This document shows positions 25,343 through 44,544 of a stretch of 64,000 nucleotides of DNA, one piece after another. A program made the translations under genes and the position numbers. Under the pieces are notes generated by a model, which had not been told where the DNA came from, made no database searches, and saw nothing but the letters and a program-made list of their open reading frames with translations. Each line of letters opens with the position of its first letter. Position 1 is the stretch's first letter. The DNA lies in the sequence record PZ445527.1. One strand, given 5' to 3'. The DNA is from a phage.

Positions 25343-26659
25343 TTATTTACCACGGGAAATAGAGTAAATTCCATAGCGCAGCGCATCACAAAGGTGAGAG
25401 TTAGCATCATGACGTGGTTTTTCACGTGATAATTTCTCTTCACCTTCTTGGAAATCCCACTTATAGTTCTGCAATGCATGGATTAATGAGGAACATGAAG
25501 CATCTACAATAATCTTACCCTGTTGGAACAGTGCTTGCAGGCATGCTAGACCATCTAAGACAGATTTTTTAGCTGGAGCCGATGCAATTTCATGCTCATA
25601 AGCTAAGTCCTGGCGGAACTGAGCTGCTGCAGAGTCAACAAAAATACGATCAACTTTATAACGATCTATACAGTGCTGAATATAAGCAGCATGCTGAGCT
25701 GTAGTTTTCTCCGCCTGCTGGTATTCTTCTAACACATAGTAGGTATCTGTATCGTAATGATATTTAATAGTAAGAACTGCTGTAGGATCACGATAACCAA
25801 CGTCAATACCAAGCAACGTTTCGAATGCTTCATCATCTTTAAAGAAGTGACGCATACCTTTGAGGTCTTTAACATGATCGATAGCATTAAAGGTATCAAA
25901 GATCTGGCCTTCGAATACAGAGAAGTCAGCCTCGTATTCCTGGCGGAAGTAGTTTTTACTAACTGTACGACGTGCTTCCTCAATGTCATTCAGATCAGCA
26001 CGAGGATTATCACGATATGTACCATGAATAGATACCCAGTTAGGTAACGTATCATCGAATCCGTAGGCGTAAAACTCTTTAAACCAGTTACCCCCACGAG
26101 GGGTGGAAATAAATAGAGCCTTAGAATTAGGTTTATCTAGAGTAGGACGCAGCTGAACCCTGAAGGCATCACCACCCACGTCGGAAATTGCCGCCTCGTC
26201 AAAGATGATAAAATCATATGAACGCCCAACTGCGGAGTCAGCCTGAGCCGCGGAAGCTAGTTTAAATAGAGAACCATTAGCTAACTCAATCTCTTTATCT
26301 TTAGCGTTTTCACGTTCGGTTTGTAGGCCATACTTCTTAATAAGACCACGAATCTGAGACCATCCGATATTAGCCAGTGAATAGTTAGGGGCAACTACTA
26401 GTACCTTCACATTAGGTTCCAGCAATTTTAGGAACCCAAGTGTATACGCTATAAAAGACTTGCCTACACGGCGTGATACACACGCCGTTACAAAACGATG
26501 TCTAGGGTCTTCTAGGGCATTGATAATTGCTATTTGAGGGCCATTAGGTGTAATACCCTCTTGTGCTAGTATTCCAGAAACAGGTAGACGGAAGAAACGT
26601 TTGTCTATTCCGAAATCAATAACGTCTACTGTATTAACATAGGGTCTTGATACTTCCAT
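25343..26659 (-). CDS. terminase large subunit
   Basis: 438 aa; Walker A-like VSRRVGKSF; C-terminal nuclease-like region. Confidence 0.88.
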   Translation of the reverse strand: MEVSRPYVNTVDVIDFGIDKRFFRLPVSGILAQEGITPNGPQIAIINALEDPRHRFVTACVSRRVGKSFIAYTLGFLKLLEPNVKVLVVAPNYSLANIGWSQIRGLIKKYGLQTERENAKDKEIELANGSLFKLASAAQADSAVGRSYDFIIFDEAAISDVGGDAFRVQLRPTLDKPNSKALFISTPRGGNWFKEFYAYGFDDTLPNWVSIHGTYRDNPRADLNDIEEARRTVSKNYFRQEYEADFSVFEGQIFDTFNAIDHVKDLKGMRHFFKDDEAFETLLGIDVGYRDPTAVLTIKYHYDTDTYYVLEEYQQAEKTTAQHAAYIQHCIDRYKVDRIFVDSAAAQFRQDLAYEHEIASAPAKKSVLDGLACLQALFQQGKIIVDASCSSLIHALQNYKWDFQEGEEKLSREKPRHDANSHLCDALRYGIYSISRGK

Positions 26660-27141
26660 TACTTTTTACCTCCAGTAGCTAGGGAAGTAATTAGGTCCAT
26701 GTAGTTTTGATCCCCGGCTCCAGCAATAATGTTATTCTGGATATTGGTCTGATTAGCAGGAGCTCGAACGGCAGCTTTAGCTTTTTCTAACTCTACCATC
26801 ATCTTCATTTCTTCCATCTTCATCTTATGTGCTTTCCAGAGAATATCCATAATATCCTGGTCAGAACCCATGCCAGTTTCTTCTAACTCTTCTAGCTTGC
26901 GCTTAATAACTTCGTCTAGAACACCAAATAAACGATCTCTATTACGGAATCCGCTTTCCATAAAAATATCGTTTAAGTAGTTCTTAACTTCACTACGATT
27001 CATAATATCTCGGAAAGCTATTTCTGACATTCCAAGACTACGTGCGGCAAAAGGCACATCACTGCCGCACTGTAAATAAGCTTCAATCACATCCATCCCT
27101 TCAGGGGACATAAGATCTGGTACTAATACATCATTTGCCAT
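26659..27141 (-). CDS. putative terminase small subunit / DNA-binding protein
   Basis: 160 aa with N-terminal HTH-like segment; directly upstream of and overlapping terminase large gene. Confidence 0.45.
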
Positions 27142-27151
27142 ATTTCCTCCT

Positions 27152-28939
27152 TTAGGTAAGGCGTTGAATTGTTACTCTTAATCTAGGTAAGAAGACGGCG
27201 GCGGATTCATTTGCATGTATAACTACACCCAACTCAGCGTTACCGTTACCCAAATTTTTAATAGTATAAATAAACCCACTTCTAGTAAATGTTAAGTCAT
27301 CTGGTCGACTAGCCCACTGTTGTGTATAACTATAGGAAGCTGTAGTATGAAATGGCACCAAATGATTAGGAGGTAGAGTTAATATTTGATGAAATATCCC
27401 ATCACCTCCTGTATAACTTTGCTGCCTTCTCCCCTGCACCTGCCATGCAGTGCCACCATATGTTCGTATAGGACCCCCTGCTGTATTAAGGTTTCCAGCA
27501 ACCACCTCAGTAGTTAGGATTACTGTAGAGTTTGCATTTGGTAGCCCAAGACTTACTGTGGATAAGGCTACATACTTATTACCTGTACCTGGGTAAGAAG
27601 GGTTTATGTCATCACCTATGTAAGTACTAGCTACGTTATTCGGTAGTAATCGTAAAGGTACTGAAGAAGGCCCCCAAACGACCCCGTGCTCATTACCTAT
27701 AGTATTATTGTTGGAATTAACATACCATTGTTTACCGGCAGAGAATTTGTAAATACTTATCTGAGACTTAGAACCCCCATAATTTACGGGAGACCATAGA
27801 GAGCCATTATTAGACCCCACAATTTCGCATCTTGCTGTAGTATCTCCAAATACTCCAGTATAAGCAACGTTATTTCCAATATATTCCATATCAGGTCTAG
27901 ATGATAAGTTACCAAAGGCATTCTGATTAATGAATTTGTAACTAGTATTTGGAAGACTAACACCTTTTATAGTAAAGTTAGAGGGGCTTATAAGAATATC
28001 GGATCCAGTAAATGGGTTACTAGCAACGCTCATACCACCATTAGAATATCTAAGGTTCAGCACATACCAGATAACTTTGGTTGGAGTAATATTATAACTA
28101 TCTTGCACATACTGCTTCTTTGCTGCTTGTGATGCTAAGTTAGACGTTGAGCCTCTACATACATAAACCTTATCTGGATAGGTTGAAGAATTATATAGTA
28201 CACTAACATTACTTGGCGTAGTACCCTTTTTACCAGCGTATCCACGTATATTGGAGTTACAAACATAAAACCAAGTATGCCCCCTTTTCCCCGCCCCTAT
28301 AGGAGCCTGCCAGTTAGGGTGCCAGAAGTCAACATTACCACTATTTATCGATACTTTAGATGCTCCGGCTGGAAATCCTGCTAGAGTCCACGCTCTGCCC
28401 ATAGCTTCGGCGGCGTACGCCCCTCCTGGTCTGTATAAGTTAAACCCAGAAGCCTGTGATATAGTACCGCCAGTACCTTGTCTAGCTATTGATTCTTCAT
28501 GCCCTAGACTAGAGTTATAAGTATAAGTACCATGTGCTAAACTATTACCAGATGCAAAAGCTGATGTAAGACCTACTTCAGCACCAGCCCTACCAATAGG
28601 AGGGTCTTCAAAAAATGCAAGAAATTGTCCAACCTGGGATTGAGTACCGTTCAAAAAACCACGATGAGTACCATTAATTTCAACAGCGGTTAGTATAACT
28701 CTACCAGGATCGTTGCTCTTTAGATTAGCTATTACAGAAGGCATTTGGCACACAAAGAACCCATTACCCGCGTTACTTAATGCACTCTCATACGTACTCT
28801 CGACTAGAACAAATGGCATATCAGAATGAAATATAGTATTGGCGTTAGGAGTTTTGTGAGCATTAATATCCCCACCATTCACCTTGTTTAGTGATAATAC
28901 AGTTTTACCATCACTATATTTTCCAGCGAAAAAACCCAT
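27152..28939 (-). CDS. receptor-binding tail protein (pb5-like)
   Basis: 595 aa Gly/Ser/Thr/Asn-rich; divergently paired with lipoprotein gene as in T5 oad-llp. Confidence 0.65.
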
Positions 28940-28964
28940 ATAATCTCCTATTATAAAAATGTAT

Positions 28965-28993
28965 TTGCTTTCATCCCTCTATTTTGCTATAAT
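28965..28993 (+). promoter_or_regulatory. sigma70-like promoter for llp-like gene
   Basis: extended -10 TGcTATAAT (28985-28993), -35-like TTTGCT 17 nt upstream, RBS GGAGAG before ATG 29025. Confidence 0.5.
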
Positions 28994-29024
28994 ATATTCA
29001 TAAATTAGAAATGGAGAGATAAAT

Positions 29025-29291
29025 ATGAAAAAGTTTGTGACTGCACTAGTTGCCGCAGTTATGTTATCTGGTTGTGCACCTGCCCCCAAACCATTTTGTA
29101 CGGGATTTGTAAAATCTTTTGGTGGTGCGGGAGAGGAACATTACGGCCTCAAGGTTCAAAAAGTTCGTATTAAGGGAGATCGCTTTCCAGTAGTACAGCT
29201 CCGTACTAAATTTGGGTGGTGGGATCTCAGTCAGTTTGACCTTAAATATGGTGATTGTAAATTTAAACTAGAGCAATCTAATTACCTGTAA
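29025..29291 (+). CDS. llp: Llp-like lipoprotein (candidate receptor-blocking superinfection exclusion)
   Basis: 88 aa; signal peptide with lipobox LSGC; divergent from receptor-binding protein gene. Confidence 0.65.
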   Translation: MKKFVTALVAAVMLSGCAPAPKPFCTGFVKSFGGAGEEHYGLKVQKVRIKGDRFPVVQLRTKFGWWDLSQFDLKYGDCKFKLEQSNYL

Positions 29292-29467
29292 TTAGTATAA
29301 AGCAAAAAGACATCTAAGTAAACTAAATTTTTTATTTCTTGGATGGTGTACTGGCAGAAACCACTATATGAGAAAAGTTGAAGTCCTTCTAGGAGTTCAC
29401 AGGCACGGTTGGTTGCGCACAAATTGTAGAATATTTTAAATACCACACTTATAGGAGCATAAAAGAT

Positions 29468-29596
29468 ATGTCAAACAAGAGAAAGAGCAGACGTGGAGAA
29501 GTGTATGATAGTTGGATTAATAGCTTTGGATTCGGAACTATCCTATTCTTTATTTTCGTAGGTTTTTGGTTGGCAGCTATGGCGGGGTGGATTTAA
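29468..29596 (+). CDS. small membrane protein (42 aa)
   Basis: RBS AGGAG 7 nt upstream of ATG; one TM helix; stop overlaps next start (TAATG). Confidence 0.45.
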   Translation: MSNKRKSRRGEVYDSWINSFGFGTILFFIFVGFWLAAMAGWI

Positions 29597-29703
29597 TGGA
29601 ATGGGTAATTATTGCACTACTAGGGGTTGTGATTATTGGGCAATGTATTTTAGATAATCACTTAGCTAGAATTGAAACTTTATTAACGGAGAAACGTAAA
29701 TGA
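29596..29703 (+). CDS. small membrane protein (35 aa)
   Basis: translationally coupled (ATGA overlap with next ORF); one TM helix. Confidence 0.4.
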   Translation: MEWVIIALLGVVIIGQCILDNHLARIETLLTEKRK

Positions 29704-29894
29704 TAGAAGTAGTAGCTACACTAATAGTAATACTAGTCTGGGCAACTTTCATTGTTTCTTATAACGCATATGTTCGCCTAAAAACTCTAGAGGCTCAGGT
29801 AAAGCAGCAACAATTTGCTATAGAAAAATTATTAGAACTGCAACGTTGTGATAGTATCCGTATTCTGCAAGTTGAGAGGGAATTAGATGTTTAG
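29700..29894 (+). CDS. small membrane protein (64 aa)
   Basis: N-terminal TM helix then coiled-coil-like segment. Confidence 0.5.
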   Translation: MIEVVATLIVILVWATFIVSYNAYVRLKTLEAQVKQQQFAIEKLLELQRCDSIRILQVERELDV

Positions 29895-30132
29895 TATTAT
29901 AGTTGCTTTTATTATCGGGATAATCGCGGGAGTTTTCGGAATGACTGCGGCTATTAACAAGCATCGCAAATATATTGCGGAAGTATCGCGGGAGATTGCG
30001 GAAAGGGAGCGGAGGTTTGATGAGAAGCGTGCGGAGTTTGAGCGGGAGTGGAATGATGGTTCTCGGGCGTCGCGGAAGAGATTCCGTGAGTTCAGACCAG
30101 AACACAGGTTTGATGACCCTTCTATGCGCTAA
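29887..30132 (+). CDS. small membrane protein (81 aa) with Arg/Glu-rich cytoplasmic tail
   Basis: N-terminal TM helix; overlaps preceding ORF. Confidence 0.5.
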   Translation: MFSIIVAFIIGIIAGVFGMTAAINKHRKYIAEVSREIAERERRFDEKRAEFEREWNDGSRASRKRFREFRPEHRFDDPSMR

Positions 30133-30243
30133 TTGACTTTTGCCAAATTCTTTGGATTACGTACGCGTGGGTGTGCTCACTACCTCCGGCGAAAATACTT
30201 AGTCTCCTAACCGCCACCCCCGTTACTATTATCATGCTAACTG

Positions 30244-30280
30244 TTTCACCCTGCAACCATTTTAATTGCAAGGTGAAACA
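30244..30280. terminator. long hairpin between convergent genes (candidate bidirectional terminator)
   Basis: GTTTCACCCTGCAA-ccattttaa-TTGCAAGGTGAAAC, 14-bp stem with one mismatch. Confidence 0.5.
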
Positions 30281-30296
30281 ATTTCAACTTTAATTA

Positions 30297-31031
30297 TTAT
30301 GCGACTTTTAGTTTCTCAATATATTGTTGCGGGCTGCAACTATATTCTGCGCGTTCTTCCTCGGTCATACTTTCCCAACATAATTGCAAACGGTCGGCTA
30401 GGAACTGATAATCATTATCATCGTCGAGAGATTCATCGATAAAGGTTTCACCTATCAATGTAACGCCGATTGATAGAATATCGTTAACGGCTTGCGCGTC
30501 CAGCGTTTTAAATCCGTATGATGCCGCCGCCGCCAATACTCCTTTATGGTCGTCGATCATCGTGAAATCAGCGTTCGGATATAGCTGCTTAAATAACTCA
30601 AAATAATGGCTTTTATATATAGCGTCTTTACTGTGGTATATTTCGCTAACTTTATCAGCTTCAAAATATTTATGTAGTGTATCGCGGGAAAATACACGGA
30701 TATTACTATCCCCACGCCCTCGCAGTCCTTGCTTGCGTAGGTAATAATAATCTGATTTGCTCATTAGTCGAGCGGTGCAAATAATGTTTAACGTGTTGGC
30801 GTCATTCATGCATTGGCGCATATATGTAACAAGCGGCAATAGTGTGTCTTGCATTATTAAATCATGTTTACACGCTTCATTCTTATACTTATTTAGATCT
30901 AGATTGCCCTCACTATCAAAGCAAGGCGCTACGCGATGGAATGAATTAACGACCGTGCCGTCAAGATCCCAAATCATGACGCGGGAAATATGCGGGAAAT
31001 TACGGGTAATATTCGTTTTAACTTGATTCAT
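30297..31031 (-). CDS. dmp: 5'-deoxyribonucleotidase (HAD family), T5 Dmp-like
   Basis: 244 aa; HAD motif I WDLDGTVV; size matches T5 Dmp. Confidence 0.8.
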   Translation of the reverse strand: MNQVKTNITRNFPHISRVMIWDLDGTVVNSFHRVAPCFDSEGNLDLNKYKNEACKHDLIMQDTLLPLVTYMRQCMNDANTLNIICTARLMSKSDYYYLRKQGLRGRGDSNIRVFSRDTLHKYFEADKVSEIYHSKDAIYKSHYFELFKQLYPNADFTMIDDHKGVLAAAASYGFKTLDAQAVNDILSIGVTLIGETFIDESLDDDNDYQFLADRLQLCWESMTEEERAEYSCSPQQYIEKLKVA

Positions 31032-31105
31032 TTTGTTACGTTCTCCATTAAAGGGATTAAATTAAATTAATTCAGCCCACTGGATGGGCTGGACTATTCC
31101 AGCTA

Positions 31106-31501
31106 TTAAAGGCCAGACGCTAACGCATCAGCGATGACGGTAATATCTTCGCCCGATACGCTGGAACGAATCCCCGCACAAGTATATACTTTTGCGCTCG
31201 CTAGCTGGTCATCAAGGCAAGCGGGGCAAGGCGTGACAACTGCAAAGGCTAACCCTGATTTCACCGCGTCAATAATGGTCGTTTCCTGCTTCATCGTGTC
31301 AATGTAAACGCCTTTCGCCTTGATGCGGCTGGATAGTTTGCCCGTGGTATAGGCGAAAGTAGTGATCTGTAGCGCCTCATTAAACTCGATTAAATCATCG
31401 ACAACGTGACCGGCCTCAACGTGATACCGCTCACCATTAGAATAAACCAGAACGATAGAAGACTGAGCGCGATCGAATGGAATACGGTTAGAAATAGCCA
31501 T
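31106..31501 (-). CDS. hypothetical pre-early protein
   Basis: 131 aa ORF between dmp and A1. Confidence 0.5.
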   Translation of the reverse strand: MAISNRIPFDRAQSSIVLVYSNGERYHVEAGHVVDDLIEFNEALQITTFAYTTGKLSSRIKAKGVYIDTMKQETTIIDAVKSGLAFAVVTPCPACLDDQLASAKVYTCAGIRSSVSGEDITVIADALASGL

Positions 31502-31570
31502 TTTTATAACTCCAATTAATTTAATAAACTTTTATAGGGGCGGTATATTTCAACCGCCAACCTGATTTAT

Positions 31571-33235
31571 TTACGCAAAAAATTTACCGTTCTTAAAGTC
31601 GATCAAAGTGCGCTGACCGTTTGCATAGGTAATTAAATGCGTTTGCGTCCAGCTTGACGCGCCAACGTTGTAACCCATGTCCAGACTACCAGCCACGCCG
31701 GCGGTATATACCCCGCCGTAAATGCTGGCGGTATGAGTGTGCCCCGTGTTTAATTTGCCCAATTTCTTAAATTGCTTCGGATTGCCGCGGCTCCCGTTTA
31801 TGCCATTGTGACCGTGTACGCCGCACTCAATGCCTGCAATCTTGAAAGATTGGTCAGTCGTTAGAAAAATGGCGTTAAATTCACAACCTGCAACCTTGCG
31901 CAACGCATAATCAAGCACGTTGAAAGTATCGTCTTTTTCTGCAATAGCTCCGTAAATTGCAGCATTAAGGCGGTGATATAGTTCCGCGTTCGCTGGGTCG
32001 TCTTTAATGTTAGCATTACGATCATCAAGCCAACGGGATAGCGCCAAATCGTGATTCGATTCAACAATGATTGTTTGAGAAAAATCGCGCTCCATCGATT
32101 CCAGCACGCGACCGGTATCGATAAGATCATCCAGAATTTTATCACGTCCAGCGGCGTACTGTTTTGCTAGGAATACACCGCTGGCGCGATTGTGATGGTT
32201 GCGTGATGTAAAATCATGCACGTCATGCACGAATTGATATTTTGGTTTAAGAATATCAAGCAAGCTATTTTCGCCAGCCCATGACGCTGCGGCGCAATCG
32301 TCATCTAATTTTTCGGCGTGTATGTCACCATATTGCAAGCCTAAAACATGCCCCGACGTTTCATAGCATCCGGCGGGAGTGGCGCAAATATTCAAATCGT
32401 AAAACACGCCGCTTTCATCCATCGTTTCAAGCTGGCGAACAAAAAATTCTCCGTCTTCGTCGAACTCGACAACAAGCGCGCCAAAGTTATGCAGCGCCTC
32501 CGCTTTCTGTCCTGCTTTCTGCTGGATGTAATTTTTTAGCGTTGCCGTTCCGGTTGAATACATACGGCGCACTACTTCACCTTTTAAAGCTGGAACGCTT
32601 TCGGCGGTGATTTTAGCCGCTCCAATTGCCAGACCTTCAAGATTAAGCGCGGTTGCAGTTTCAGCGAATCCAGAAAGCGGATAGTCTGCGGTAGGTAAAA
32701 CGTTAATTTCAGCCATGAAAGCAAAGCGGCGGTTATTTAAAAATACATTCTTATTGCAGATATATTTGTCAAAAGCGGAATCATATTTGATTCCGTTGGC
32801 GCCCTCGCCATTTTGAAAACCGTTTTTGTTATAAATAAACTTGCTAACCAGCAAATCAGCGCCGATAAATTGGGCATATTGCTCCAGTGAGGCCAAAAAG
32901 TTTTTATGCGGGAACGTATTATTCTGAATCGATGTAATAATAAAGCGTTTTCCCTGCTTTACTTCCCATTGCTCGATCGTGCTAGAAATAACTCCAGCGG
33001 CTTCAGGGCGGTCATCGTTTTTTATGGCTTTTGCTACTTTCGCCGCTTTTGGTTTCGCTGGTTTATTTGCTTCCAGCCAGTCACAAATCGCAGTGGAATG
33101 TTTTGCAGTATCGTAAACCGCTTTTGATATATCGTCGCATACTTCCAGCTTAGTAGCGCGCAGACGTTTACCGTAGAAATTGAAATCAGCGGCAAGGTTG
33201 AGGATCTGGGTTTGTTTTTCTGCGGAAATAACCAT
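31571..33235 (-). CDS. A1: A1-like pre-early protein (calcineurin-like metallophosphoesterase / nuclease)
   Basis: 554 aa; metallophosphatase motifs GDIHAE, HDVHDF, ESNHD, GHTH. Confidence 0.8.
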   Translation of the reverse strand: MVISAEKQTQILNLAADFNFYGKRLRATKLEVCDDISKAVYDTAKHSTAICDWLEANKPAKPKAAKVAKAIKNDDRPEAAGVISSTIEQWEVKQGKRFIITSIQNNTFPHKNFLASLEQYAQFIGADLLVSKFIYNKNGFQNGEGANGIKYDSAFDKYICNKNVFLNNRRFAFMAEINVLPTADYPLSGFAETATALNLEGLAIGAAKITAESVPALKGEVVRRMYSTGTATLKNYIQQKAGQKAEALHNFGALVVEFDEDGEFFVRQLETMDESGVFYDLNICATPAGCYETSGHVLGLQYGDIHAEKLDDDCAAASWAGENSLLDILKPKYQFVHDVHDFTSRNHHNRASGVFLAKQYAAGRDKILDDLIDTGRVLESMERDFSQTIIVESNHDLALSRWLDDRNANIKDDPANAELYHRLNAAIYGAIAEKDDTFNVLDYALRKVAGCEFNAIFLTTDQSFKIAGIECGVHGHNGINGSRGNPKQFKKLGKLNTGHTHTASIYGGVYTAGVAGSLDMGYNVGASSWTQTHLITYANGQRTLIDFKNGKFFA

Positions 33236-33332
33236 AATAATAAAACTCCATTAAAGGGATTAAAAACGTTTGTTATTGGCAAATATTGCCAGATATAACG
33301 CCTCAAATAATAGGCGTTATAATTTGCAATAT

Positions 33333-33548
33333 TTAACTAATTGGCATTAGGCTAGAACTAACCCCACAAGCAATGGCGGCTATTAAACAAAGTAAGCCCA
33401 ACCGCTTTGCTAATTTAGCTTTACGCTTAAAATAATACGAATCCAGATCATTTTGGAAGTATGCAAATAATAATGAGGCCGCCATAATAAATAAGCCTAG
33501 AATGAGGGATTCAGTAGGGTAAAAGACCATTTTAATAACTCCAGTCAA
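33333..33548 (-). CDS. small membrane protein
   Basis: 71 aa, two predicted TM helices. Confidence 0.4.
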   Translation of the reverse strand: MTGVIKMVFYPTESLILGLFIMAASLLFAYFQNDLDSYYFKRKAKLAKRLGLLCLIAAIACGVSSSLMPIS

Positions 33549-33586
33549 AGGAAATTATAGCGGGGAATATTCCCCGCTAATTAAAT

Positions 33587-33994
33587 TTATTCGCCTGCGG
33601 CTTGTTTTACTTCATCGGCAACGCCTAACAGCTGCGCCACGGCGTCCAGCGTTTCTAATTTTGCGCTTTCCAGGGATGCCAGATCGTCAACGTCTTTGAT
33701 AATGCCGGAATCAATGGCATGTTTTGCAATAACGCGCACGTAATGCGCTTTGCGGATAGAACTACCGCCGCCAACTTTGCGCGGCTTATCGCTTTTCTGA
33801 TACGCTTTCGCGCTGGTCAATTTTGAGCGAACGGACACGGGAGAAGTCGCGCCAACTGCTTTTGCAATTTCTCTCAGGCCGTCGCTGTTGGCGAACTCCA
33901 AGCCGTTCTCATTGATTAGCTGTTGATACATGGTAACAGCCTGCTGGGTGTTTTCTTCATTCCAAGAGAATTTTGCGGTTTTAACGTTAGTCAT
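33587..33994 (-). CDS. A2: A2-like pre-early DNA-binding protein
   Basis: 135 aa; position upstream of A1 as in T5. Confidence 0.65.
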   Translation of the reverse strand: MTNVKTAKFSWNEENTQQAVTMYQQLINENGLEFANSDGLREIAKAVGATSPVSVRSKLTSAKAYQKSDKPRKVGGGSSIRKAHYVRVIAKHAIDSGIIKDVDDLASLESAKLETLDAVAQLLGVADEVKQAAGE

Positions 33995-34090
33995 GATATA
34001 AACTCCAATTAATTTAATTTAAGGGATAAGATTAACACAATGTTAATCGTTATATACCCCGAACTGCTGGGGTATATAAAGTTAACACTA

Positions 34091-34342
34091 TTACGCTACA
34101 GCTTCCCATTTTTCGTTACGTTGAACAACCTTTACAACGTCGCCGGATTTAACGCGAACGTTATAAATAGTTTTCCCGTTGTTACTCCGTTCCGTTTCAG
34201 CGTAAACCGCATCAATTACATCAAACGGCATAAGCGACGCGCCTTTAATGCGTTCGGCTTTTCCGGTTAGTTCATCCGTTTTAGTAACGAAAGGAATGAA
34301 GACGGATTGACCAATTTTCGGCGCATTAGTAACGTTTTTCAT
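34091..34342 (-). CDS. hypothetical pre-early protein
   Basis: 83 aa ORF upstream of A2. Confidence 0.45.
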   Translation of the reverse strand: MKNVTNAPKIGQSVFIPFVTKTDELTGKAERIKGASLMPFDVIDAVYAETERSNNGKTIYNVRVKSGDVVKVVQRNEKWEAVA

Positions 34343-34569
34343 AGTATAAACTCCAGTTTATTTCGTGGATTGTTCCGCATTACCTGCTAAAAAGTAACAG
34401 GTAATAAGAAAAAATCCGCTCGCCAATATAATCAATTTAAAGAACTCCACTCAGGCCGCTATATCCCGTTAGGGGGCGGGGCACATTTTGGCAAGTACCG
34501 GCCGTCAAATTGTATCAAGTTATCGCTCTTATCGAACTGGGTACATCTTAAAGCCTATCGGCTAGGGTG

Positions 34570-34773
34570 TCAAACTATTTTTTGCAGTTTTTTATGATTT
34601 TCCTTCAGGTCGATCATAATATTTCGCCAGATCATTTCTAGACCTTGCTGGCGGCCTTTCTTGTACTGCTTAAATCGATATTTTACCGATCTTTGCGCTA
34701 TTGTCAATAGCTTTCTAGTATTGCCATCCAGTTTTTTGGCTGGTTTACCAGTGACTAATAAAGTTTGTTTCAT
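34570..34773 (-). CDS. hypothetical basic protein
   Basis: 67 aa Lys/Arg-rich ORF. Confidence 0.3.
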   Translation of the reverse strand: MKQTLLVTGKPAKKLDGNTRKLLTIAQRSVKYRFKQYKKGRQQGLEMIWRNIMIDLKENHKKLQKIV

Positions 34774-35446
34774 ATCTGCGATCCCTTATAATGTAATAAG
34801 TTTGCCGCCGATAGACTTTAAGATATACCCAATTTTTAAAGAGCGCGGCGGTAAACTTCCCGCCGTGTAGTTCGTCATTGCCGCCCTACGAGATAAATAA
34901 TAACAAATGCCAAAAATGGCGCAACCTTATTTTTGTAAAGAAACGTAAAGAAAGCAAATACTCGCACCGCGTCCGGCGATTGCCCAAGTTTAAAGGAAAC
35001 GGGCGCGCGGATACCATAAAATCCAGCAGATAGGCAAGTAATTTTTTCATTTATATTTGCCTTGCCCTACTTGATTTTTCTAGAATCCATCAGGTGACGA
35101 TAAACGGGCTATCCCTTTATGATGGGATACCTGAAAAATTTACCTCGTTGTAGGACGTTTTAGGCCGCTTATTTTCGAGTTAACAAATATTTAACAAAAG
35201 CAAAATTGAAAAATAGTTGTAAAAGGTATTGACTTTTAAAAATCAAGATTAAACGAGTTATTTTATAAAATTAATTAATTGACTTTTATTTGTTGTTGTG
35301 TACTAGAAAGATAGCAGACTAATAATTACTAGAATGATAATCATGCTGGTGGATTGTAACAGCCTGAACCATTAGCAGACTACTAATTCCGGAAAATCTC
35401 ATTAGCCAACTAACTATTTCCTGAGTTATAATATAAACATAAATTA

Positions 35447-35600
35447 ATGAGAAATAATAACTATAAAAATAATCACCATTATAATAATAACTATAAAAAT
35501 AATAACTATAAAAATAATCGCCATTATAATAATAATTATAAAAATAATCGCCATTATAATAATAACTATAAAAATAATCACCATTATAATAATAACTATA
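35447..35600. repeat. tandem direct repeats, about 26-27 bp unit, about 5.5 copies
   Basis: unit ATAATAA(C/T)TATAAAAATAATC(A/G)CCATT repeated head to tail. Confidence 0.85.
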
Positions 35601-35639
35601 AGAAACTATCGGTCTAAGTGAGAATCACTATCATTTAAG

Positions 35640-35721
35640 TTATTCACAAAGTTATCCACAGCACAAAATGATTTGACACGATAGGCGGCGATATAAGGGC
35701 TTATCCACAGACTTATCCACA
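35640..35721 (+). promoter_or_regulatory. cluster of DnaA boxes
   Basis: TTATTCACA (35640), TTATCCACA at 35652, 35701 and 35713 (three perfect consensus boxes), all same orientation. Confidence 0.75.
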
Positions 35722-36041
35722 GGTTTTCCTACTGTATAAATATACAGGGTAAAAAGGTAGTGTTAACGACTGCAATCAATTTTAAGCGGCCTAAATCGCT
35801 TTCTAACGAGCTAAATGATGCGGGGTAATATTAAAGTAAAGCCTCCACCCGTTGCCCTGGGTGAAGGGTATTGATATTTCTACTTTTACCGTTAACAACG
35901 AAAACGAGTAATAATTAACCTAATGTAAAGTTTTGTAAAGGTCGCCATAATCGGTGGCTTTTTTGTTATAATGCCCCTACACCGTTTGAGGACGGTTGAA
36001 AATTTTCCCAAAAAAATTTTGGAGGCTTAAAATGGTTGCGT

Positions 36042-36262
36042 ATTCTTCTTCTGACGCTCTTTTCACTGGAAAAGGCTGGGTATCAAATCGCTGGATCATT
36101 CAAGAAATGGTGCGGGAGTTCGGCATTGCTAAAACTTACACTACCATTCAGGCGCTTTATGATAATGATCAAATCGATCAGCAAACGGCGGGCTTTTTGC
36201 TGGATACCCTGAAGGCGGAACATTGTACTAAAAAACAAGCCGCCAAAATTGCTTTAATGTAA
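36042..36262 (+). CDS. hypothetical protein (73 aa)
   Basis: RBS GGAGG 6 nt upstream of ATG 36042; first gene of + strand cassette between inverted DnaA-box arms. Confidence 0.5.
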
Positions 36263-36304
36263 CTAATAACGGGGCGTTATTTTCGCCCCACTAACTAGGG
36301 GGGA

Positions 36305-36457
36305 ATGAAAATGGTTATTTTTCGATCAATTCTGGCGGGTATCTTGGGCGCTGTTTTATCACTTTTTGCCATAGCTTTCGGCGTTCACGCGGTTATTGTT
36401 GGCGCGGGTATCGCCGTTTTTTCTTATTTGCTGGGCTGCATGAGTAAAGGGGAATAA
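36305..36457 (+). CDS. small membrane protein (50 aa)
   Basis: two hydrophobic helices; G-rich RBS. Confidence 0.4.
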   Translation: MKMVIFRSILAGILGAVLSLFAIAFGVHAVIVGAGIAVFSYLLGCMSKGE

Positions 36458-36459
36458 AA

Positions 36460-36672
36460 ATGATCCGCAACGTTTCTCTTGCTCGTTCGAAAGGCTTTAA
36501 GCTGGTGGACGTTAACACGTTCGAGCGGGAAGATTGTAAAATTGAATATATAGCACGGAATAAAAACGCCTTCCGTGTTACTGAAAAGAAATTCGATAAG
36601 CGCGGCAACGTGATCGCTGAAACGGTTAGACACTTTGCCACCTTTTACGCGGCCTTTCGTGGGGTACTATGA
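36460..36672 (+). CDS. hypothetical protein (70 aa)
   Basis: ORF tightly packed after previous gene. Confidence 0.5.
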   Translation: MIRNVSLARSKGFKLVDVNTFEREDCKIEYIARNKNAFRVTEKKFDKRGNVIAETVRHFATFYAAFRGVL

Positions 36673-36794
36673 AAAGCGTTGTTATTGTTATCCTTGCAAT
36701 GGTTGGCGGTTTTACCGCCACCTTATTTAAGAATGATCCCCTTTCATTGGGGATTTTTATGCTTTTATCTGGTTACCTGATTGGGAGGTTATAA
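36669..36794 (+). CDS. small membrane protein (41 aa)
   Basis: ATGA start/stop overlap with previous ORF; TM helix. Confidence 0.4.
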   Translation: MKSVVIVILAMVGGFTATLFKNDPLSLGIFMLLSGYLIGRL

Positions 36795-36795
36795 A

Positions 36796-37140
36796 ATGGT
36801 AATTTATGAAGGCAATCGCTTTGTTACTAATTGCCGCCCGGCATTGTTAGCAAACTACTTAAACCAGCTTTCTCCTGAATATAAGGGCGTTGTTAATATT
36901 TACGAGGGAAAAGCGCATTATAAGATTAATGCGGTCGTTGCCCGTGAACTAGCGTTTCAATTTTTGACCTTTGCATCTTGTGATATTCAGGTCATGGGGG
37001 AGGCGTTAATCGCAGAAAATGAAAATGATTTTATTAATATTTTTCGCAAAGTATGCACCGAGCGCCTGATAATGAAAGGCGCATATATTCAATCCACTGC
37101 GGATAGTATTGAAACAGCGTTTCGAAAGGTGGCACAATGA
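36796..37140 (+). CDS. hypothetical protein (114 aa)
   Basis: RBS GGGAGG then ATG 36796. Confidence 0.5.
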   Translation: MVIYEGNRFVTNCRPALLANYLNQLSPEYKGVVNIYEGKAHYKINAVVARELAFQFLTFASCDIQVMGEALIAENENDFINIFRKVCTERLIMKGAYIQSTADSIETAFRKVAQ

Positions 37141-37155
37141 AATTATATATTTTCG

Positions 37156-37434
37156 TTGGTAATAGTAAGGCAGCTAATGATTCCGCTGGGGGCGATAACG
37201 TTCGCCACTATTGGCAAAAATATATTTACTAGGGTTATTATGAGCAATAAAATTATTATAACTAAAACTACCACAATGGTAGACGTTTTTTACGTGCCCG
37301 ATACGCCGGAAAACCGGCAAGCGGTCGAGCGGGGTGATTATGGTAGCGTTATTTATGATGCCGATGGCTATTATCGGCATTTGGTCGATTCCTATGGGGA
37401 AGAGGAGAAGATCACGCATCGACTACCAGACTAA
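37156..37434 (+). CDS. hypothetical protein
   Basis: 92 aa ORF, start uncertain. Confidence 0.35.
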   Translation: MVIVRQLMIPLGAITFATIGKNIFTRVIMSNKIIITKTTTMVDVFYVPDTPENRQAVERGDYGSVIYDADGYYRHLVDSYGEEEKITHRLPD

Positions 37435-37469
37435 TAATAACGGGGCGCAACTATCAGGGAGTGCCCCCA

Positions 37470-37507
37470 ATTCTCAAATGAGAATCATTCTCAAATGAGA
37501 ATGATTC
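37470..37507. repeat. overlapping near-perfect palindromes TCAAATGAGAAT(C/G)ATTCTCATTTGA
   Basis: dyad symmetry read directly; flanked by GGGGCGC...GTGCCCC inverted repeat. Confidence 0.8.
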
Positions 37508-37747
37508 TCATTTGACCGCGCCCGCGATGGTTAGCCTGCTAATGATTAGGGTGTTACGTGTCGCCTTGTGTGATCGTTAGCTCGCTAACTAATTTTCAAG
37601 CCTCCTCCAATTTTGCCCTTGTTTTAGTATCCCCGCCAAAATTAAACGCGTTAGAATGCGATTCAGGACGTTTTAGCGGTATATTAGAATTATTCACTGC
37701 ATAGGAATACTGTATAAATATACAGTAGAATAACCTGGGGATAAGTC

Positions 37748-37816
37748 TGTGGATAACGCTTCAAAATGGCTAGGATTCTGTCAAGTCAAATCGTGCTGTT
37801 GATAAGTCTGTGGATA
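37748..37816 (-). promoter_or_regulatory. DnaA boxes in inverted orientation
   Basis: TGTGGATAA at 37748-37756 and 37808-37816 (reverse complement of TTATCCACA), preceded by palindrome TACTGTATAAATATACAGTA (37708-37727). Confidence 0.75.
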
Positions 37817-37839
37817 ACTTAAATAACAGTGTTTCTCAC

Positions 37840-38047
37840 TTCCGTTTTTAAATGCGAATCATTATCATTCGTATTCCACTATCTAACCGATAATCATTCC
37901 ACTTTTTAAATGAGAATCGTTTCACTTCTTGAATAGTTCTCATTCCCTTTCTTAAATGCGAATAATTATCATTCGCATTTCACTTTTTAAATGAGATTGA
38001 TTCTCATTATCATTCGCATTCAGGCGAGCAGGGCAATTGCCCTGCGC
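37840..38047. repeat. array of AATG(C/A)GAAT...ATTCGCATT palindromic motifs ending in perfect 18-bp palindrome GCAGGGCAATTGCCCTGC
   Basis: repeated TTTTTAAATG(A/C)GAAT units and dyad-symmetric AATGCGAATAATTATCATTCGCATT. Confidence 0.75.
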
Positions 38048-38050
38048 TTT

Positions 38051-38276
38051 TGTGCAAATCCGACATCTGCTCCAAGGGTTACGTGCTGGCGTGTATGTGC
38101 AAATCCGACAATTTTTGGTAGTGTGCAAATCCGACCCGAAAAATTTTTATAGTGTGCAAATCCGACGACGAATCTGTCTCCCAAAAACTCCAGCAATCAC
38201 GAACTGCGTTCGAATCCTGTGGGATATGTGCAAATCCGACATGGTTTTTCTAGGATTAAGATGTGCGAATCCGACA
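38051..38276 (+). repeat. six direct 14-mer iterons GTGCAAATCCGACA (one variant GTGCGAATCCGACA)
   Basis: copies at 38051, 38097, 38123, 38154, 38228, 38263; irregular 25-75 bp spacing; same orientation. Confidence 0.85.
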
Positions 38277-38605
38277 AGATTTTTGTGACTTCGATTGAAG
38301 GGTGTGTGATTGTGTGGGTTTGAGGAGAAGATGAGAGAGCGAGAGAAATTTTGGGACTAGAAGGATGTGGGCGCAGGATTGGTGCGGAGCACCTGATTTG
38401 CGGGGATTTTGGGGAAGATGTGGGATAATTTGGGAAGATTTGAGATAGGTGCAGAAAAAGTGAAATTTTATTAGCAAAATGGGGCAAAATAGCTTGACAA
38501 GTGAAAATTTCTGTGGCTCTAAAAACTCAGGCAATCATGGGCCTTCGGCCCGAAATAATGCTGCTATTTTCAGGAGAGTAGGAGTTCCTAAAAACTTAGG
38601 CGTTT

Positions 38606-38654
38606 GTGCAAATCCTACCATAAATTTCTAGAATATCAATGTGCAAATCCGACA
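38606..38654 (+). repeat. two further copies of the 14-mer iteron
   Basis: GTGCAAATCCTAC (38606) and GTGCAAATCCGACA (38641). Confidence 0.8.
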
Positions 38655-38694
38655 GTAATTTCTGGAAATGTGTTTTCGAAAAATGTCTCCTAGA

Positions 38695-38770
38695 AATAAC
38701 CGCCCTCCCTATAACCGCCCTATATTAACCGCCTATTGCTAGAGTTTCTAGGAACAATGAAAACCGCCTG
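38695..38770 (+). repeat. four direct AACCGCC heptamer repeats
   Basis: ATAACCGCCCTCC, ATAACCGCCCTAT, TTAACCGCCTATT, AAAACCGCCTGAG. Confidence 0.6.
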
Positions 38771-39189
38771 AGTTGACTAAAGTTTTCATAAAAACTTAGG
38801 AGTCTAGAAGAAAGTGTTGTGCCATCCTAGCAGATGAGCGGCAACAGGTGTATCATCTTGAATGTAAATTATATGGTCAAAAGTTTTACTTTTATTTTAA
38901 ATATAAGATCCCCCAGGGTTCTCATATAGAGCTTTGCCCCCGCCAGAAGGTCTCGTGATGTTTCTAGCAATTTATATTAAATTACTTATTAACTTGTCCT
39001 GTCGCTCCGTATCCTCCGCTACAAGTTAGTAATTTTAAATTACTGAACCACCACACCTTCTGTGTGGCAACTCTAAATGGTTAATTCTATTAACTCATAG
39101 AGTTATGATAACATACATTTAGCTATCTGTCAACGAAAGTTTGTATTTGAGTCTCGGTACAGGTATTGTGCACCGAGACATGCAGAGTA

Positions 39190-40074
39190 TTATAATAATT
39201 CTTGGTATGCTTTTTGATACGCCTCAGTATCTGTAGGTGTATCTTTTGCTAACGCAATTAGTTCATCTGTTATCTGAACATTCGTACTATAACGTTGGTG
39301 GAACTCTTCTGGGATTTCTAGGTATCTATTTATGAACGCTGCAGCAAGCGGTGTAACTAACCCAATTTCTAGGGATAACTTAACTTGTTTCTCATAAATT
39401 AAATATTGAGAGTCAGATGGGGTTGGTGGGGTTACATCAACTTTTTCTGGTTCTTTTTCTGGAAGCAATGGATTGTTATACAATGCTTCATCTGGAAGCA
39501 CAGATTTACGCTCTTTAAATATATAAGTTTCTAGATCCGATGCTTTAGATCCTGAGTAAACAGCGAAGATGCTAGCTTTACCTTGAGATGCCCTAACTGG
39601 TAAGTAACTAGTAGGATAGCTCCTTAATGCATCGTGGAATGGACTTCCTGAGTATTTGTACGTATCCCCATAGAGATCATCAATATTCATTCGTTCATCT
39701 TCAAAGATATGGAAAGAGCTAAATGATGGAATGGTGAAGTATTCCATCTGTAACCCATAAACTAAGAAACGATGTGCATATGCGCTAATCTTTAAGACTG
39801 TAAATGCTTTCTCACCTTCTTTATAAGAATTGCCCTTTGAAGTAACTTGATAACGCTTACAAAACATCTCTACTAGACGTTTCTCATTAATATTGAGTGA
39901 GGAATATAAACGTCCATTTAGCCCTAGAAGGGCATCAAACATAAATGCTAACTTATCTTTTTCTTCTTGGGACAGTTCTGGAAATGGTAATACTTTCGCA
40001 TTAGGAACATTATTGTTCTCTTTAGGTTTTGTTTTACCAGCATTTTGTCTTAGCTTATCTTTAAAGTTATACAT
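39190..40074 (-). CDS. hypothetical early protein
   Basis: 294 aa ORF, first early gene next to repeat region. Confidence 0.55.
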   Translation of the reverse strand: MYNFKDKLRQNAGKTKPKENNNVPNAKVLPFPELSQEEKDKLAFMFDALLGLNGRLYSSLNINEKRLVEMFCKRYQVTSKGNSYKEGEKAFTVLKISAYAHRFLVYGLQMEYFTIPSFSSFHIFEDERMNIDDLYGDTYKYSGSPFHDALRSYPTSYLPVRASQGKASIFAVYSGSKASDLETYIFKERKSVLPDEALYNNPLLPEKEPEKVDVTPPTPSDSQYLIYEKQVKLSLEIGLVTPLAAAFINRYLEIPEEFHQRYSTNVQITDELIALAKDTPTDTEAYQKAYQELL

Positions 40075-40153
40075 TATTATCTCCCGTTTTTAAGGTCTGG
40101 ATGACCTTCTTTTTATTTTAGAGCCTCCATAGAGGCTCGTGTATTAGGAATTA

Positions 40154-40765
40154 TTAATCCTTTTTACTTTCGTTAATAACAGCCCCTAATGCTTCCATAA
40201 TTGCATCTTCTAAACTTCCATGTTTATCAGGATTGCTTAAGTGAATAGTATAAACAGAATTCCTAGAAACTCCAGAGTCCGCTGGTGCTACGCTTTTCAT
40301 GTCAGATTCAAAAGCTTCTTGAGTATGTTTCAATTGTACAGAAGGTCCATAATCTTCACCAACTCGGTAGGACTGATTAGACGACAGTGTACCACCACAT
40401 GGAACATTGTGCAAATCCGACGTTATTTTAGGGCTGTTCCACATTGTAATTGGCCCTGACTGCCACGGATCTCGAATAGTCACAGGAGTACTAGGACGGT
40501 TAACCTCAGTCTTCACAAGTTTATAGCCAGCATCGATTAGTGTATTAATTAGATTATCAGCTGGGATGCGAGCTTTGCCAAAGATCTTACGAGCGTTGTT
40601 GAGCCTACCTTCAAAATCTTTACATGCTTTAATATTAGTGTGCGCAAAGGTTAGCTTCATAGATTTGAACTGTACAGTGGCAGTTAAATCTTTAAAAGCA
40701 TAATCCCACGTATTCAGTTCATGATCTGGTACTACTTGAATAGATTGCTGTGCATATAAAGTCAT
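40154..40765 (-). CDS. hypothetical early protein
   Basis: 203 aa ORF; contains an in-frame copy of the GTGCAAATCCGAC iteron at 40429-40441. Confidence 0.55.
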   Translation of the reverse strand: MTLYAQQSIQVVPDHELNTWDYAFKDLTATVQFKSMKLTFAHTNIKACKDFEGRLNNARKIFGKARIPADNLINTLIDAGYKLVKTEVNRPSTPVTIRDPWQSGPITMWNSPKITSDLHNVPCGGTLSSNQSYRVGEDYGPSVQLKHTQEAFESDMKSVAPADSGVSRNSVYTIHLSNPDKHGSLEDAIMEALGAVINESKKD

Positions 40766-40950
40766 TATTTATTCTCCAGTTTGTCTAACATCTTATGAGC
40801 TGCTAGGTTATATTGTTTAAGTTCACGATTAAGGATTTGGTTCTCACACTTTAGTTCTAGGTTCTCCTTGTTAAGGAGATTGCAGATTAGTAGAAGTGCT
40901 AGTATAACTAGCAGAGAACCTACGAGCATTAAAAGAAAAAGAGTTTCCAT
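40765..40950 (-). CDS. small membrane protein
   Basis: 61 aa, N-terminal TM helix. Confidence 0.45.
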   Translation of the reverse strand: METLFLLMLVGSLLVILALLLICNLLNKENLELKCENQILNRELKQYNLAAHKMLDKLENK

Positions 40951-41183
40951 TATTTAATTCCCATGTAACGTTTGAGATACATGATGAAGTCTTCTGTTGT
41001 ATGTTCTACGCTACCCTGAACCACAAACAACTTTAAAGCCTCACGCTGTAATTTAAGAGCAGCTAACTCACCGCGTAATTTTGTTATATCTTCCGCTAGT
41101 TCTCTAGCTCTGCGCATAATAGCAAATGATACAGATGTTACAATAAATAACATAACTGCTAAAATAATTACTATGAACTCCAT
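40950..41183 (-). CDS. small membrane protein
   Basis: 77 aa, N-terminal TM helix and coiled-coil. Confidence 0.45.
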   Translation of the reverse strand: MEFIVIILAVMLFIVTSVSFAIMRRARELAEDITKLRGELAALKLQREALKLFVVQGSVEHTTEDFIMYLKRYMGIK

Positions 41184-41461
41184 ATTAACATCCAGCTCTT
41201 ATCGTATATTTGGGCATGTTCTACTAATTCATTTATTGATATAGAATTATCGTAGATACTCTCTAGTAAACATTTTCTGTCAAATTTATCTACCAAATAC
41301 TCCGCGCCATTTATCACTACCCTATATAGCTCTGGAACTAAGGGGTGTTTGTTTGGTATTGGGCGACTGCCTAAGTCTATTTCATTATATCCCCACGTTG
41401 TTTTAAATAGTTTGTTACTAAGTGCTGCTAGTGGGTTTGACCATACAATATAGCTACTCAC
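41171..41461 (-). CDS. hypothetical protein
   Basis: 96 aa ORF. Confidence 0.45.
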   Translation of the reverse strand: MSSYIVWSNPLAALSNKLFKTTWGYNEIDLGSRPIPNKHPLVPELYRVVINGAEYLVDKFDRKCLLESIYDNSISINELVEHAQIYDKSWMLIWSS

Positions 41462-42002
41462 TATTTATCTCCATTCTTAACTTTGAAAACTTATTATACC
41501 AAACTATGTAATTATCGTCAATTACAAATTTATGATAACATGCTGGTACGGTATAAGTTCCATAATCCGTGACACGCTGCACAACCTTGTGTGCGCACAG
41601 TCGACATCCATGCCCTTCTAAATGAGATCTAGCAGTTTGCCAGTAATAACCATCATGGTCTGGACAATAGATCTCGACTTGCTGTTGCATTGTCTTATAA
41701 TTTACACGCTCATACCCGAAGAAAGCCCCGTGAGCTGCAATAGCTTTCTTGATAAATATAAGGTTTAGCGCTTCTTGCTGGAAGTCGGGATGTAGCTGCT
41801 TAATTTTAGTTCTATTAATAGACCCATCCGATTTGATGAACCTATTTATTGGAAAGTTGTTAGCTTCCTCGATTAATAATTCATTTACTTTCTCTCTCAT
41901 ATTAGATACTCTCACAACTAAGGTGGAAACATTCGTAAGCATCCCCAGTAAACTCTTTATCTTGTAATAAACACTTAGCCTGGTCTTCCGGTACTCCAGC
42001 AT
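41454..42002 (-). CDS. Cys/His-rich putative zinc-binding protein
   Basis: CPDHDGYYW...HLEGHGCRLCAH; start likely at an internal Met. Confidence 0.45.
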   Translation of the reverse strand: MLEYRKTRLSVYYKIKSLLGMLTNVSTLVVRVSNMREKVNELLIEEANNFPINRFIKSDGSINRTKIKQLHPDFQQEALNLIFIKKAIAAHGAFFGYERVNYKTMQQQVEIYCPDHDGYYWQTARSHLEGHGCRLCAHKVVQRVTDYGTYTVPACYHKFVIDDNYIVWYNKFSKLRMEINSE

Positions 42003-44538: not shown

Positions 44539-44544
44539 TAATTT

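Follow-up and report, generated by a model that had tools for sequence, protein, structure and literature searches.

A predicted T5/BF23-like long terminal repeat, assembled once between the late and early genes of a Tequintavirus record

The long direct terminal repeats of T5-like phages stand twice in some deposited genomes, among them T5 (AY543070, repeats at 1-10219 and 111532-121750) and BF23 (OR083247, repeats at 1-9743 and 104801-114544). Davison (bioRxiv 10.1101/866236) described the anatomy of the T5 repeat, including Repeat Regions 1 and 2 (the equivalent interval being T5 positions 4682-6209), the two 66-bp DRE repeats, and a Repeat Region 3 that exceeds the long terminal repeat (LTR) by 270 bp. 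According to the same work, all T5-like phages have DnaA boxes arranged as pairs, 3 bp separating the two boxes and 40 bp separating one pair from the next, and repeats lying in the middle of T5-like records are a deposition artefact of terminal-repeat assembly. Among the genes of the first-step-transfer (FST) region, reverse genetics found A1 and A2 to be the only essential ones (bioRxiv 10.64898/2026.04.02.716235).

Here we analysed a 64-kb stretch of phage record PZ445527.1, referred to as the window, in which a pre-early block of this kind stands between late and early genes. The phage is a Tequintavirus with a DNA identity of ~92% to T5 and BF23. The block at 30174-38519 (8.35 kb; 8,346 bp) is collinear with the T5 and BF23 terminal repeats, and we conclude with high confidence that it is a single assembled copy of a T5/BF23-like long direct terminal repeat. 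The element is of a well-known, ordinary kind and adds no new biology.

Gene content of the block and its neighbours

The minus strand of the block carries the T5 gene order dmp-002-A1-005-A2-007-hdi. It begins with dmp (deoxynucleoside-5'-monophosphatase, 30297-31031; 236/244 aa identical to T5 dmp), followed by a T5.002 homolog (31106-31501; phrog_4576, 84% aa identity by tblastn) and by A1 (31571-33235; 528/556 aa identical to T5 A1, phrog_1745), a metallophosphatase-like protein of host DNA degradation and second-step transfer. A T5.005 homolog encoding a small membrane protein comes next (33333-33548; phrog_4820); its tblastn match, 89% over 65 aa, lies at 33336-33530, and its true start is probably near 33530. 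The remaining genes are A2 (33587-33994; 127/135 aa identical to T5 A2), the DNA-binding protein required for second-step transfer, a T5.007 homolog (34091-34342; DUF7177, Pfam PF23801, E=3e-43, 92% aa identity to T5.007) and the hdi/T5.008 homolog (34570-34773; DUF7416, Pfam PF24188, tblastn 93%), after which a T5.009 remnant was found at 34795-34878 (28/35 aa, tblastn). Pfam returned nothing for dmp, A1, A2 or the receptor-binding protein, and all four were identified through PHROGs and by comparing them directly with T5 and BF23. An earlier note had assigned dmp, A1 and A2 to the minus strand, which is borne out, with 97%, 95% and 94% aa identity to T5, respectively.

That note had overlooked a plus-strand pre-early operon at 36032-37434 (36.0-37.4 kb). 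It comprises homologs of T5.012, 013 and 014, a 41-aa ORF, 015, and 017 with a 016 remnant, in the same order 012-017 as in T5 (PHROG matches; tblastn identity 64-97%). Taken together, tblastn with the T5 proteins recovered 13 of the 17 T5 FST genes in addition to the short 016 remnant. Relative to T5, three genes are missing: T5.003, the HNH endonuclease gene hegG (010) and 011, the last together with its promoter. Since 003, hegG and 011 are cleanly absent, the predicted repeat is shorter than those of T5 (10.2 kb) and BF23 (9.7 kb). At the place of T5 hegG, the AT-rich 15-bp tandem array is longer in the window. In contrast to the window, BF23 has an 011 homolog and one more ORF (BF23_00010 and BF23_00011), and its tandem array is ~105 bp shorter.

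To the left of the block, the late region ends with its right-arm genes. The large terminase subunit gene (25343-26659, minus strand) encodes a protein identical to T5.155 over 438/438 aa, and it is thus a T5-type terminase. The next gene (27152-28939, minus strand) encodes a receptor-binding tail protein of the BF23 type (phrog_4815, E=7e-266; 587/595 aa identical to BF23 oad) and has no nucleotide match to T5 oad. It is followed on the plus strand by an llp-type receptor-blocking lipoprotein gene (29025-29291; phrog_1119), whose product matches the BF23 receptor-blocking protein in 87/88 aa and has a lipobox matching Pfam LPAM_1. The earlier note was right to name llp and the receptor-binding gene as left neighbours; both products, the latter of the BtuB type, are 99% aa identical to those adjoining the BF23 repeat. 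Four small plus-strand ORFs at 29468-30132 are homologs of T5.159-162 and BF23_00172-175 (PHROG E=1e-26 to 1e-46). Because the homologous T5 and BF23 genes are annotated outside the right terminal repeat, window 29300-30173, which holds these ORFs, is assigned by homology to unique right-arm DNA outside the repeat.

On the right side, window 38520-38900 likewise corresponds by alignment to unique left-arm DNA and not to repeat. The first early gene is a T5.018 homolog (39190-40074, minus strand; 99% aa over 294 aa, phrog_8583), and the window is collinear up to the tRNA cluster, so the early genes named on this side by the earlier note are indeed present. BF23 differs just right of the repeat, where window 38863-40168 matches T5.018 instead. 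Both flanks are collinear over long distances, with window 1-24880 matching T5 78.5-105.8 kb and window 39001-64000 matching the early region (11.6-36.4 kb) of the T5-like phage Shivani, whose deposited genome includes both repeats.

Repeat anatomy and the predicted nick site

The repeat anatomy of the block matches what has been published on the T5 LTR. The repeat-rich non-coding DNA reported by the earlier note is real, but it forms two stretches (34774-35995 and 37435-38800) rather than one, split by the plus-strand operon. The first stretch was delineated by TRF and a repeat search and corresponds to Repeat Regions 1 and 2 with a putative divergent pre-early promoter zone; it includes the AT-rich 15/30-bp tandem array at 35428-35601. 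Strong -35/-10 matches were found on the minus strand at 34707-34680 and 34573-34545. The promoter/terminator scan as a whole was mildly enriched (42 against 28.6 expected from shuffles), which lends weak support to the promoter zone.

Each stretch holds one arm of a 132-nt inverted repeat pair, 77% complementary, and the two arms together carry eight DnaA-type boxes in four pairs. The IRC-spacer-IRD arm (35616-35747, plus strand) holds four consensus boxes at 35640-48, 35652-60, 35701-09 and 35713-21; 3 bp separate the boxes of a pair, and 40 bp separate the two pairs. Its inverted partner, the IRD'-spacer-IRC' arm (37710-37841, plus strand), forms the core of the injection stop signal (iss) region and holds four DnaA-type boxes on the minus strand in the same pair arrangement (3 bp, 40 bp), at 37736-44 (TTATCCCCA), 37748-56, 37797-805 (TTATCAACA) and 37809-17. 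A pair of 67-nt DRE direct repeats, containing nested palindromes, follows at 37833-38003 (plus strand, repeat search). Further to the right, at 38044-38048 (minus strand), the window has the sequence at which T5 DNA carries its major (8%) single-strand interruption, with 70/70 nt identical around the T5 nick 9748^9749. Based on the nick consensus 5'-NPu pGCGCN-3' taken from the T5 annotation, a nick is predicted on the minus strand between 38047 and 38048, with GCGC at 38044-38047.

Just inside the right end of the predicted repeat, motif counting revealed six DRD repeats (TGTGCAAATCCGAC) at 38051-38275 on the plus strand. The motif has 11 matches in the window compared with 0.25 expected, and 8 of the 11 fall within 38051-38653. 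Further DRD-like motifs were noticed in coding DNA at 405-433 and 40408. The repeat-rich DNA extends ~270 bp beyond the repeat end, as in T5; this part of Repeat Region 3, already in unique left-arm DNA (38520-38800, plus strand), contains two DRD copies at 38605-38653 and three TAACCGCC repeats at 38697-38733. Both inverted-repeat arms with their paired DnaA boxes are common to T5 and the window, as are the DRE repeats, the DRD repeats and the sequence of the major nick site.

DRD copies stand on both sides of the predicted right cut, six of them 245-470 bp inside and two 85-135 bp outside; two copies of a 57-nt module lie 378 bp apart on either side of the right terminus, and TAACCGCC motifs adjoin both termini. 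Conceivably, the DRD, 57-nt and TAACCGCC modules could be a recognition array that guides the T5-type terminase to where ends are cut and the repeat is duplicated, a role in place of or alongside one in injection stop, although we consider this unlikely.

Borders of the predicted repeat

The borders were placed against T5, BF23 and HdH2, reference genomes deposited with both repeat copies, the BF23 ends having been determined by PhageTerm. In the alignments, the first base of each of the three records falls at window 30174/30175, and the last base of each falls at window 38519. The borders of the block thus coincide with the virion termini of the reference phages. The right arm runs unbroken from the terminase, receptor-binding and llp genes into the block and stops at the record's last base, while the left arm starts with record base 1 at 30174/5 and continues unbroken past 38519 into the early genes. 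In BF23, the right arm aligns to window 26300-38519, and the left arm extends from 30175 across the repeat end to 38862 and then over 40169-42758; the T5 and HdH2 arms align in the same pattern. Conservation extends to the sequences on either side of both termini. At the right end, ...GACAAGTGAAAATTTCTGTGGCTC|TAAAAACTCAGGCAATCATGGGCC matches T5 without a difference, and >40 nt around 38519 are identical; the outer, unique side of the left border shows only moderate conservation, less than the right border. The dmp gene lies 123 nt inside the predicted left end, a spacing shared with T5 and BF23.

A T5-like terminal repeat is therefore present where the earlier note had placed a 9.6-kb block (29300-38900), but the size and borders of that block do not hold. 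Homology to the T5, BF23 and HdH2 ends gives 30174/30175-38519, so the earlier block was overlong by ~0.87 kb on the left and 0.38 kb on the right. Could the repeat in this phage nevertheless have borders other than those of T5 and BF23, for example reaching left to ~29300 or right to ~38900? The ends are predicted by homology, the left border is only moderately conserved on its unique side, and Repeat Region 3 motifs run to ~38800, all of which leave some room for such a shift. Yet the aligned starts of T5, BF23 and HdH2 coincide, as do their aligned ends, the large terminase subunit (TerL) is identical to that of T5, the sequence around 38519 agrees with T5 over >40 nt, and T5.159-162 homologs lie outside the repeat in both T5 and BF23. 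We thus regard different borders as improbable.

We assign a still smaller probability to the idea that nothing has collapsed, with the record exceeding one genome unit (as a long-read concatemer, or with a second copy ~105 kb away) and the block marking a true concatemer junction. A late-repeat-early order is expected of replicative concatemers, and the window covers 64 kb of the record. On the other hand, repeat searches detected no second copy of the block and no long direct repeat within the 64-kb window, and one A1 copy and a length of 105-112 kb characterise at least 83% of the T5-like records deposited; moreover, this reading would alter the bookkeeping only, not the nature of the element. 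Headful packaging, in which the virion DNA is permuted, lacks a fixed long terminal repeat and carries the pre-early block internally, has in its favour that the block is internal in the record, and nothing else. Both terminus sequences known from T5 are conserved, as are the iss anatomy and the nick-site sequence, and according to the literature two-step injection needs the block at a fixed end. The complete aa identity (100%) between TerL and its T5 counterpart makes true circular permutation by headful packaging very unlikely, and we leave next to no probability to it. The collapsed terminal repeat accordingly remains our preferred reading.

Proposed origin of the layout and its meaning for annotation

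In the virion, one 8.35-kb unit would be located at each end of the linear genome, and the layout of the record would have arisen when the two identical copies were merged in assembly and the sequence was opened elsewhere. The late-repeat-early order would not occur in virion DNA. Since both arms of T5, BF23 and HdH2 align to the block as a collapse predicts, this order would be that of a concatemer junction or of a circularised assembly retaining a single repeat, in support of the earlier note's explanation for the position between late and early genes. The T5-identical terminase would cut concatemers at the conserved positions 30174/5 and 38519/20, leaving a repeat at each end.

By orthology to T5, the left copy would be the FST DNA that enters the cell first, and transfer would halt in the repeat-rich injection-stop region at 37.4-38.5 kb. 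Host RNA polymerase may then read two divergent pre-early sets from the 34.8-36.0 kb promoter zone, namely dmp, 002, A1, 005, A2, 007 and hdi on the minus strand and 012-017 on the plus strand. A1 would bring about host DNA degradation, and A1 together with A2 the entry of the remaining genome. We infer this two-step injection with an iss pause from A1/A2 orthology and iss anatomy.

The main value of the finding is annotation. Window 30174/5 is where the record should be made to start, with the 8.35-kb unit duplicated at the right end, which would make the true virion genome ~8.3 kb longer than the collapsed sequence. Similarly, dmp, A1 and A2 are to be labelled as genome-end pre-early genes and not as genes placed between the late and early regions. 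The phage also represents one more natural FST variant without 003, hegG and 011, an absence that fits the reverse-genetics result (bioRxiv 10.64898/2026.04.02.716235).

The predicted terminal-repeat unit, equivalent to the FST/pre-early region plus the iss region, shows 87-93% DNA identity to T5, with which it shares both end sequences and the flanking genes on both sides; T5 carries the repeat twice in its record, whereas the window carries it once. BF23, with the same termini, is among the closest relatives of the block (full-length alignments ~90-92% identical). None of the deposited T5-like records in the collection is identical to the window, and over the full length of the block the best of them reach 86-91% identity. 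The A1 gene occurs at 519 places in 443 deposited records, with two copies in at most 76 of them (17%) and a single copy in about 83%, and in many T5-like records it lies mid-record. The same late-repeat-early layout with a single A1 is seen in HildyBeyeler (MZ501074), phA11 (OQ680478), OSYSP (MF402939) and phiLLS (KY677846), whose records are 105-112 kb long.

Borders of the predicted terminal repeat

The window derives from a T5-like siphovirus (Tequintavirus). The pre-early block drawn in the earlier note at 29300-38900 is matched by 537 phage records, nearly all of them from T5-like Escherichia and Salmonella phages; identity is 86-91% in the best full-length matches, and no identical record was found among the 537. 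Positions 1-24880 are collinear with T5 78.5-105.8 kb, from D13 to portal (end of the early region plus late structural genes), while 39001-64000 align collinearly with early regions of related phages (e.g. Shivani 11.6-36.4 kb) and include a 12-gene tRNA cluster (57483-63840, - strand). In this cluster, ARAGORN called a tRNA-Asp with the unusual anticodon ATC at 59805-59881.

To map the borders of the repeat, we aligned the two termini of each of three genomes whose records contain the repeat twice, namely BF23 (reference repeat of 9,743 bp, determined with PhageTerm), T5 and HdH2. The right arm of BF23 aligned without interruption to 26300-38519, where the record and the alignment stop together. 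Base 1 of the BF23 record fell on 30175, and its left arm continued past the repeat end to 38862 and resumed at 40169-42758; BF23 carries different genes in place of 38863-40168, and this stretch, which contains the homolog of T5 gene T5.018, has no BF23 match. The left end of T5 mapped to 30174-30178 and its right end to 38519, the position at which HdH2 also ends, and the T5 left arm (9317-13999) aligned to 37616-42254 at 93.6% identity with no break. In addition, the right-end junction ...GACAAGTGAAAATTTCTGTGGCTC|TAAAAACTCAGGCAATCATGGGCC is identical to that of T5, and the left-end junction ...GGGTG T|GCTCACTACCTCCGGCGAAAATACTTAGTC closely matches BF23 and T5. Together, these ends and conserved junctions place the repeat unit at 30174/5-38519 (8,346 bp), its exact termini being set by homology, and virion molecules should start with GCTCACTACCTCCGGCG... 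and finish with ...GAAAATTTCTGTGGCTC. The block is a real feature, with borders that had been drawn 0.87 kb off on the left and 0.38 kb off on the right. On the left, 29300-30173 holds four small + strand ORFs homologous to T5.159-162, genes that the T5 and BF23 annotations put beyond the limits of the right repeat; on the right, 38520-38900 is unique left-arm DNA.

A single repeat copy between late and early genes

The neighbours named in the earlier note were all recovered. On the left lie the receptor-binding gene (27152-28939, - strand) and the gene for the receptor-blocking lipoprotein llp (29025-29291, + strand), both of the BtuB type, with 99% amino acid identity to BF23 and no nucleotide match to T5 oad/llp; on the right lies the first early gene, the T5.018 homolog (39190-40074, - strand, 99% amino acid identity). 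The end of the late region (25343-29291) is a mosaic, in which a T5-identical terminase stands beside the BF23-type receptor-binding protein and llp.

In virion DNA of such phages, nothing lies to the left of the left repeat or to the right of the right repeat. In the window, a single repeat copy links late to early genes within one molecule, an order restricted to concatemer junctions and to circularised assemblies in which the two copies have been merged. A truly permuted headful genome is ruled out for practical purposes by the large terminase, which is identical to that of T5 at 438/438 amino acids; given this identity, the phage should package its DNA in the T5 mode, which yields fixed ends bearing a long direct repeat. 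The collapsed single copy proposed in the earlier note is supported by this terminase, by the alignments of both arms and by the copy counts of A1, a gene of the repeat. A1 matches 443 records at 519 places, so that at most 17% of the records carry two copies, and in many it lies mid-record; one repeat copy inside the record is the usual deposited form of these phages. Davison attributes such records to assembly software mishandling large terminal repeats (bioRxiv 10.1101/866236). A search for a second copy within the 64-kb window found none, and we infer from homology that the repeat is physically present twice. Neither the biology of the feature (the T5 terminal repeat or first-step-transfer region) nor the deposition artefact (a collapsed repeat) is new; in practice, the record is to be re-oriented and the repeat duplicated in the annotation.

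Pre-early genes and their proposed roles

The genes dmp (30297-31031), A1 (31571-33235) and A2 (33587-33994), named in the earlier note, are real; all three are on the - strand, with 97%, 95% and 94% amino acid identity to the T5 proteins. The note overlooked a + strand operon at 36032-37434. A tblastn search with all 17 T5 first-step-transfer proteins recovered dmp, 002, A1, 005, A2, 007, hdi (008), most of 009, 012, 013, 014, 015 and 017, together with 016 reduced to a 22-codon remnant that is joined to the upstream end of 017 (37156-37434); it did not find 003, hegG (010) or 011. Compared with T5, the repeat thus lacks 003, the HNH endonuclease gene hegG, and 011 with its promoter (sites 31527-31565, 35283-35617 and 35860). 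These natural absences are unremarkable, since 003 and hegG each occur in <15% of Demerecviridae genomes and 011, though found in >75% of Tequintavirus genomes, is among the genes dispensable in T5, where only A1 and A2 are essential (bioRxiv 10.64898/2026.04.02.716235). Two ORFs elsewhere, 1081-1572 (+) and 47328-47708 (-), show 31-33% amino acid similarity to T5 hegG; the former separates the homologs of D13 and D14, which have no gene between them in T5, and is probably an inserted homing endonuclease gene.

By orthology to T5, the left repeat copy would serve as first-step-transfer DNA. Some 8% of the genome would enter before transfer pauses in the repeat-rich injection stop signal region, a two-step injection that we infer from homology. 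Host RNA polymerase would express the pre-early genes. A1 would be both necessary and sufficient to degrade host DNA, second-step transfer would require A1 and A2, Dmp would dephosphorylate dNMPs, and hdi would inhibit host cell division.

Repeat-rich non-coding DNA

The non-coding repeat-rich DNA, described earlier as one stretch, is real and forms two (34774-35995 and 37435 to ~38800), because the + strand operon stands between them. Its repeat-rich parts reproduce the T5 long terminal repeat as described by Davison (bioRxiv 10.1101/866236). Two 132-nt inverted arms (35616-35747 and 37710-37841, 77% complementary) correspond to IRC-spacer-IRD and IRD'-spacer-IRC' of T5. DnaA-type boxes occur as two pairs per arm, with 3 bp between the boxes of a pair and 40 bp between the pairs; six boxes are the consensus TTATNCACA and two are the variants TTATCCCCA and TTATCAACA. 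The 64-kb window has eight matches to the consensus in total, six of them in these arms. There are also two direct repeats of the DRE family, each 67 nt. The motif of the DRD direct-repeat family, TGTGCAAATCCGAC, has 11 matches in the window (0.25 expected), six of them at 38051-38275 and another two shortly after the repeat end. Around the annotated T5 major nick, 70/70 nt are conserved, so that a - strand nick is predicted between positions 38047 and 38048.

Between the two divergent sets of pre-early genes, at the site of hegG in T5, is a tandem array of AT-rich 15/30-bp units (AATAATAACTATAAA / AATAATCRCCATTAT; 35428-35601). Its copy number differs among relatives, the array being ~105 bp (7 units) shorter in BF23 and HdH2.

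Several further repeats were observed. A 57-nt module with two DRD motifs occurs at 38227-38283 and 38605-38661, 378 bp apart, on either side of the predicted right terminus at 38519. TAACCGCC, with 6 occurrences in the window (0.9 expected), lies once 34 nt inside the left terminus (30208), and three copies follow shortly beyond the right one (38697-38733). Extra DRD motifs in coding DNA, two adjacent in the SbcC-like D13 gene (405-433) and one in the T5.019 homolog (40408-40421), may reflect chance or a common binding protein. The homolog of ltf (L-shaped tail fibre) contains in-frame 63/42-nt tandem repeats at 5132-5490. On the - strand, 44530-61587 holds families of 46-74-nt repeats with -35/-10-like cores (TTGCTT ... 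TATAAT), presumably strong T5-type early promoters.
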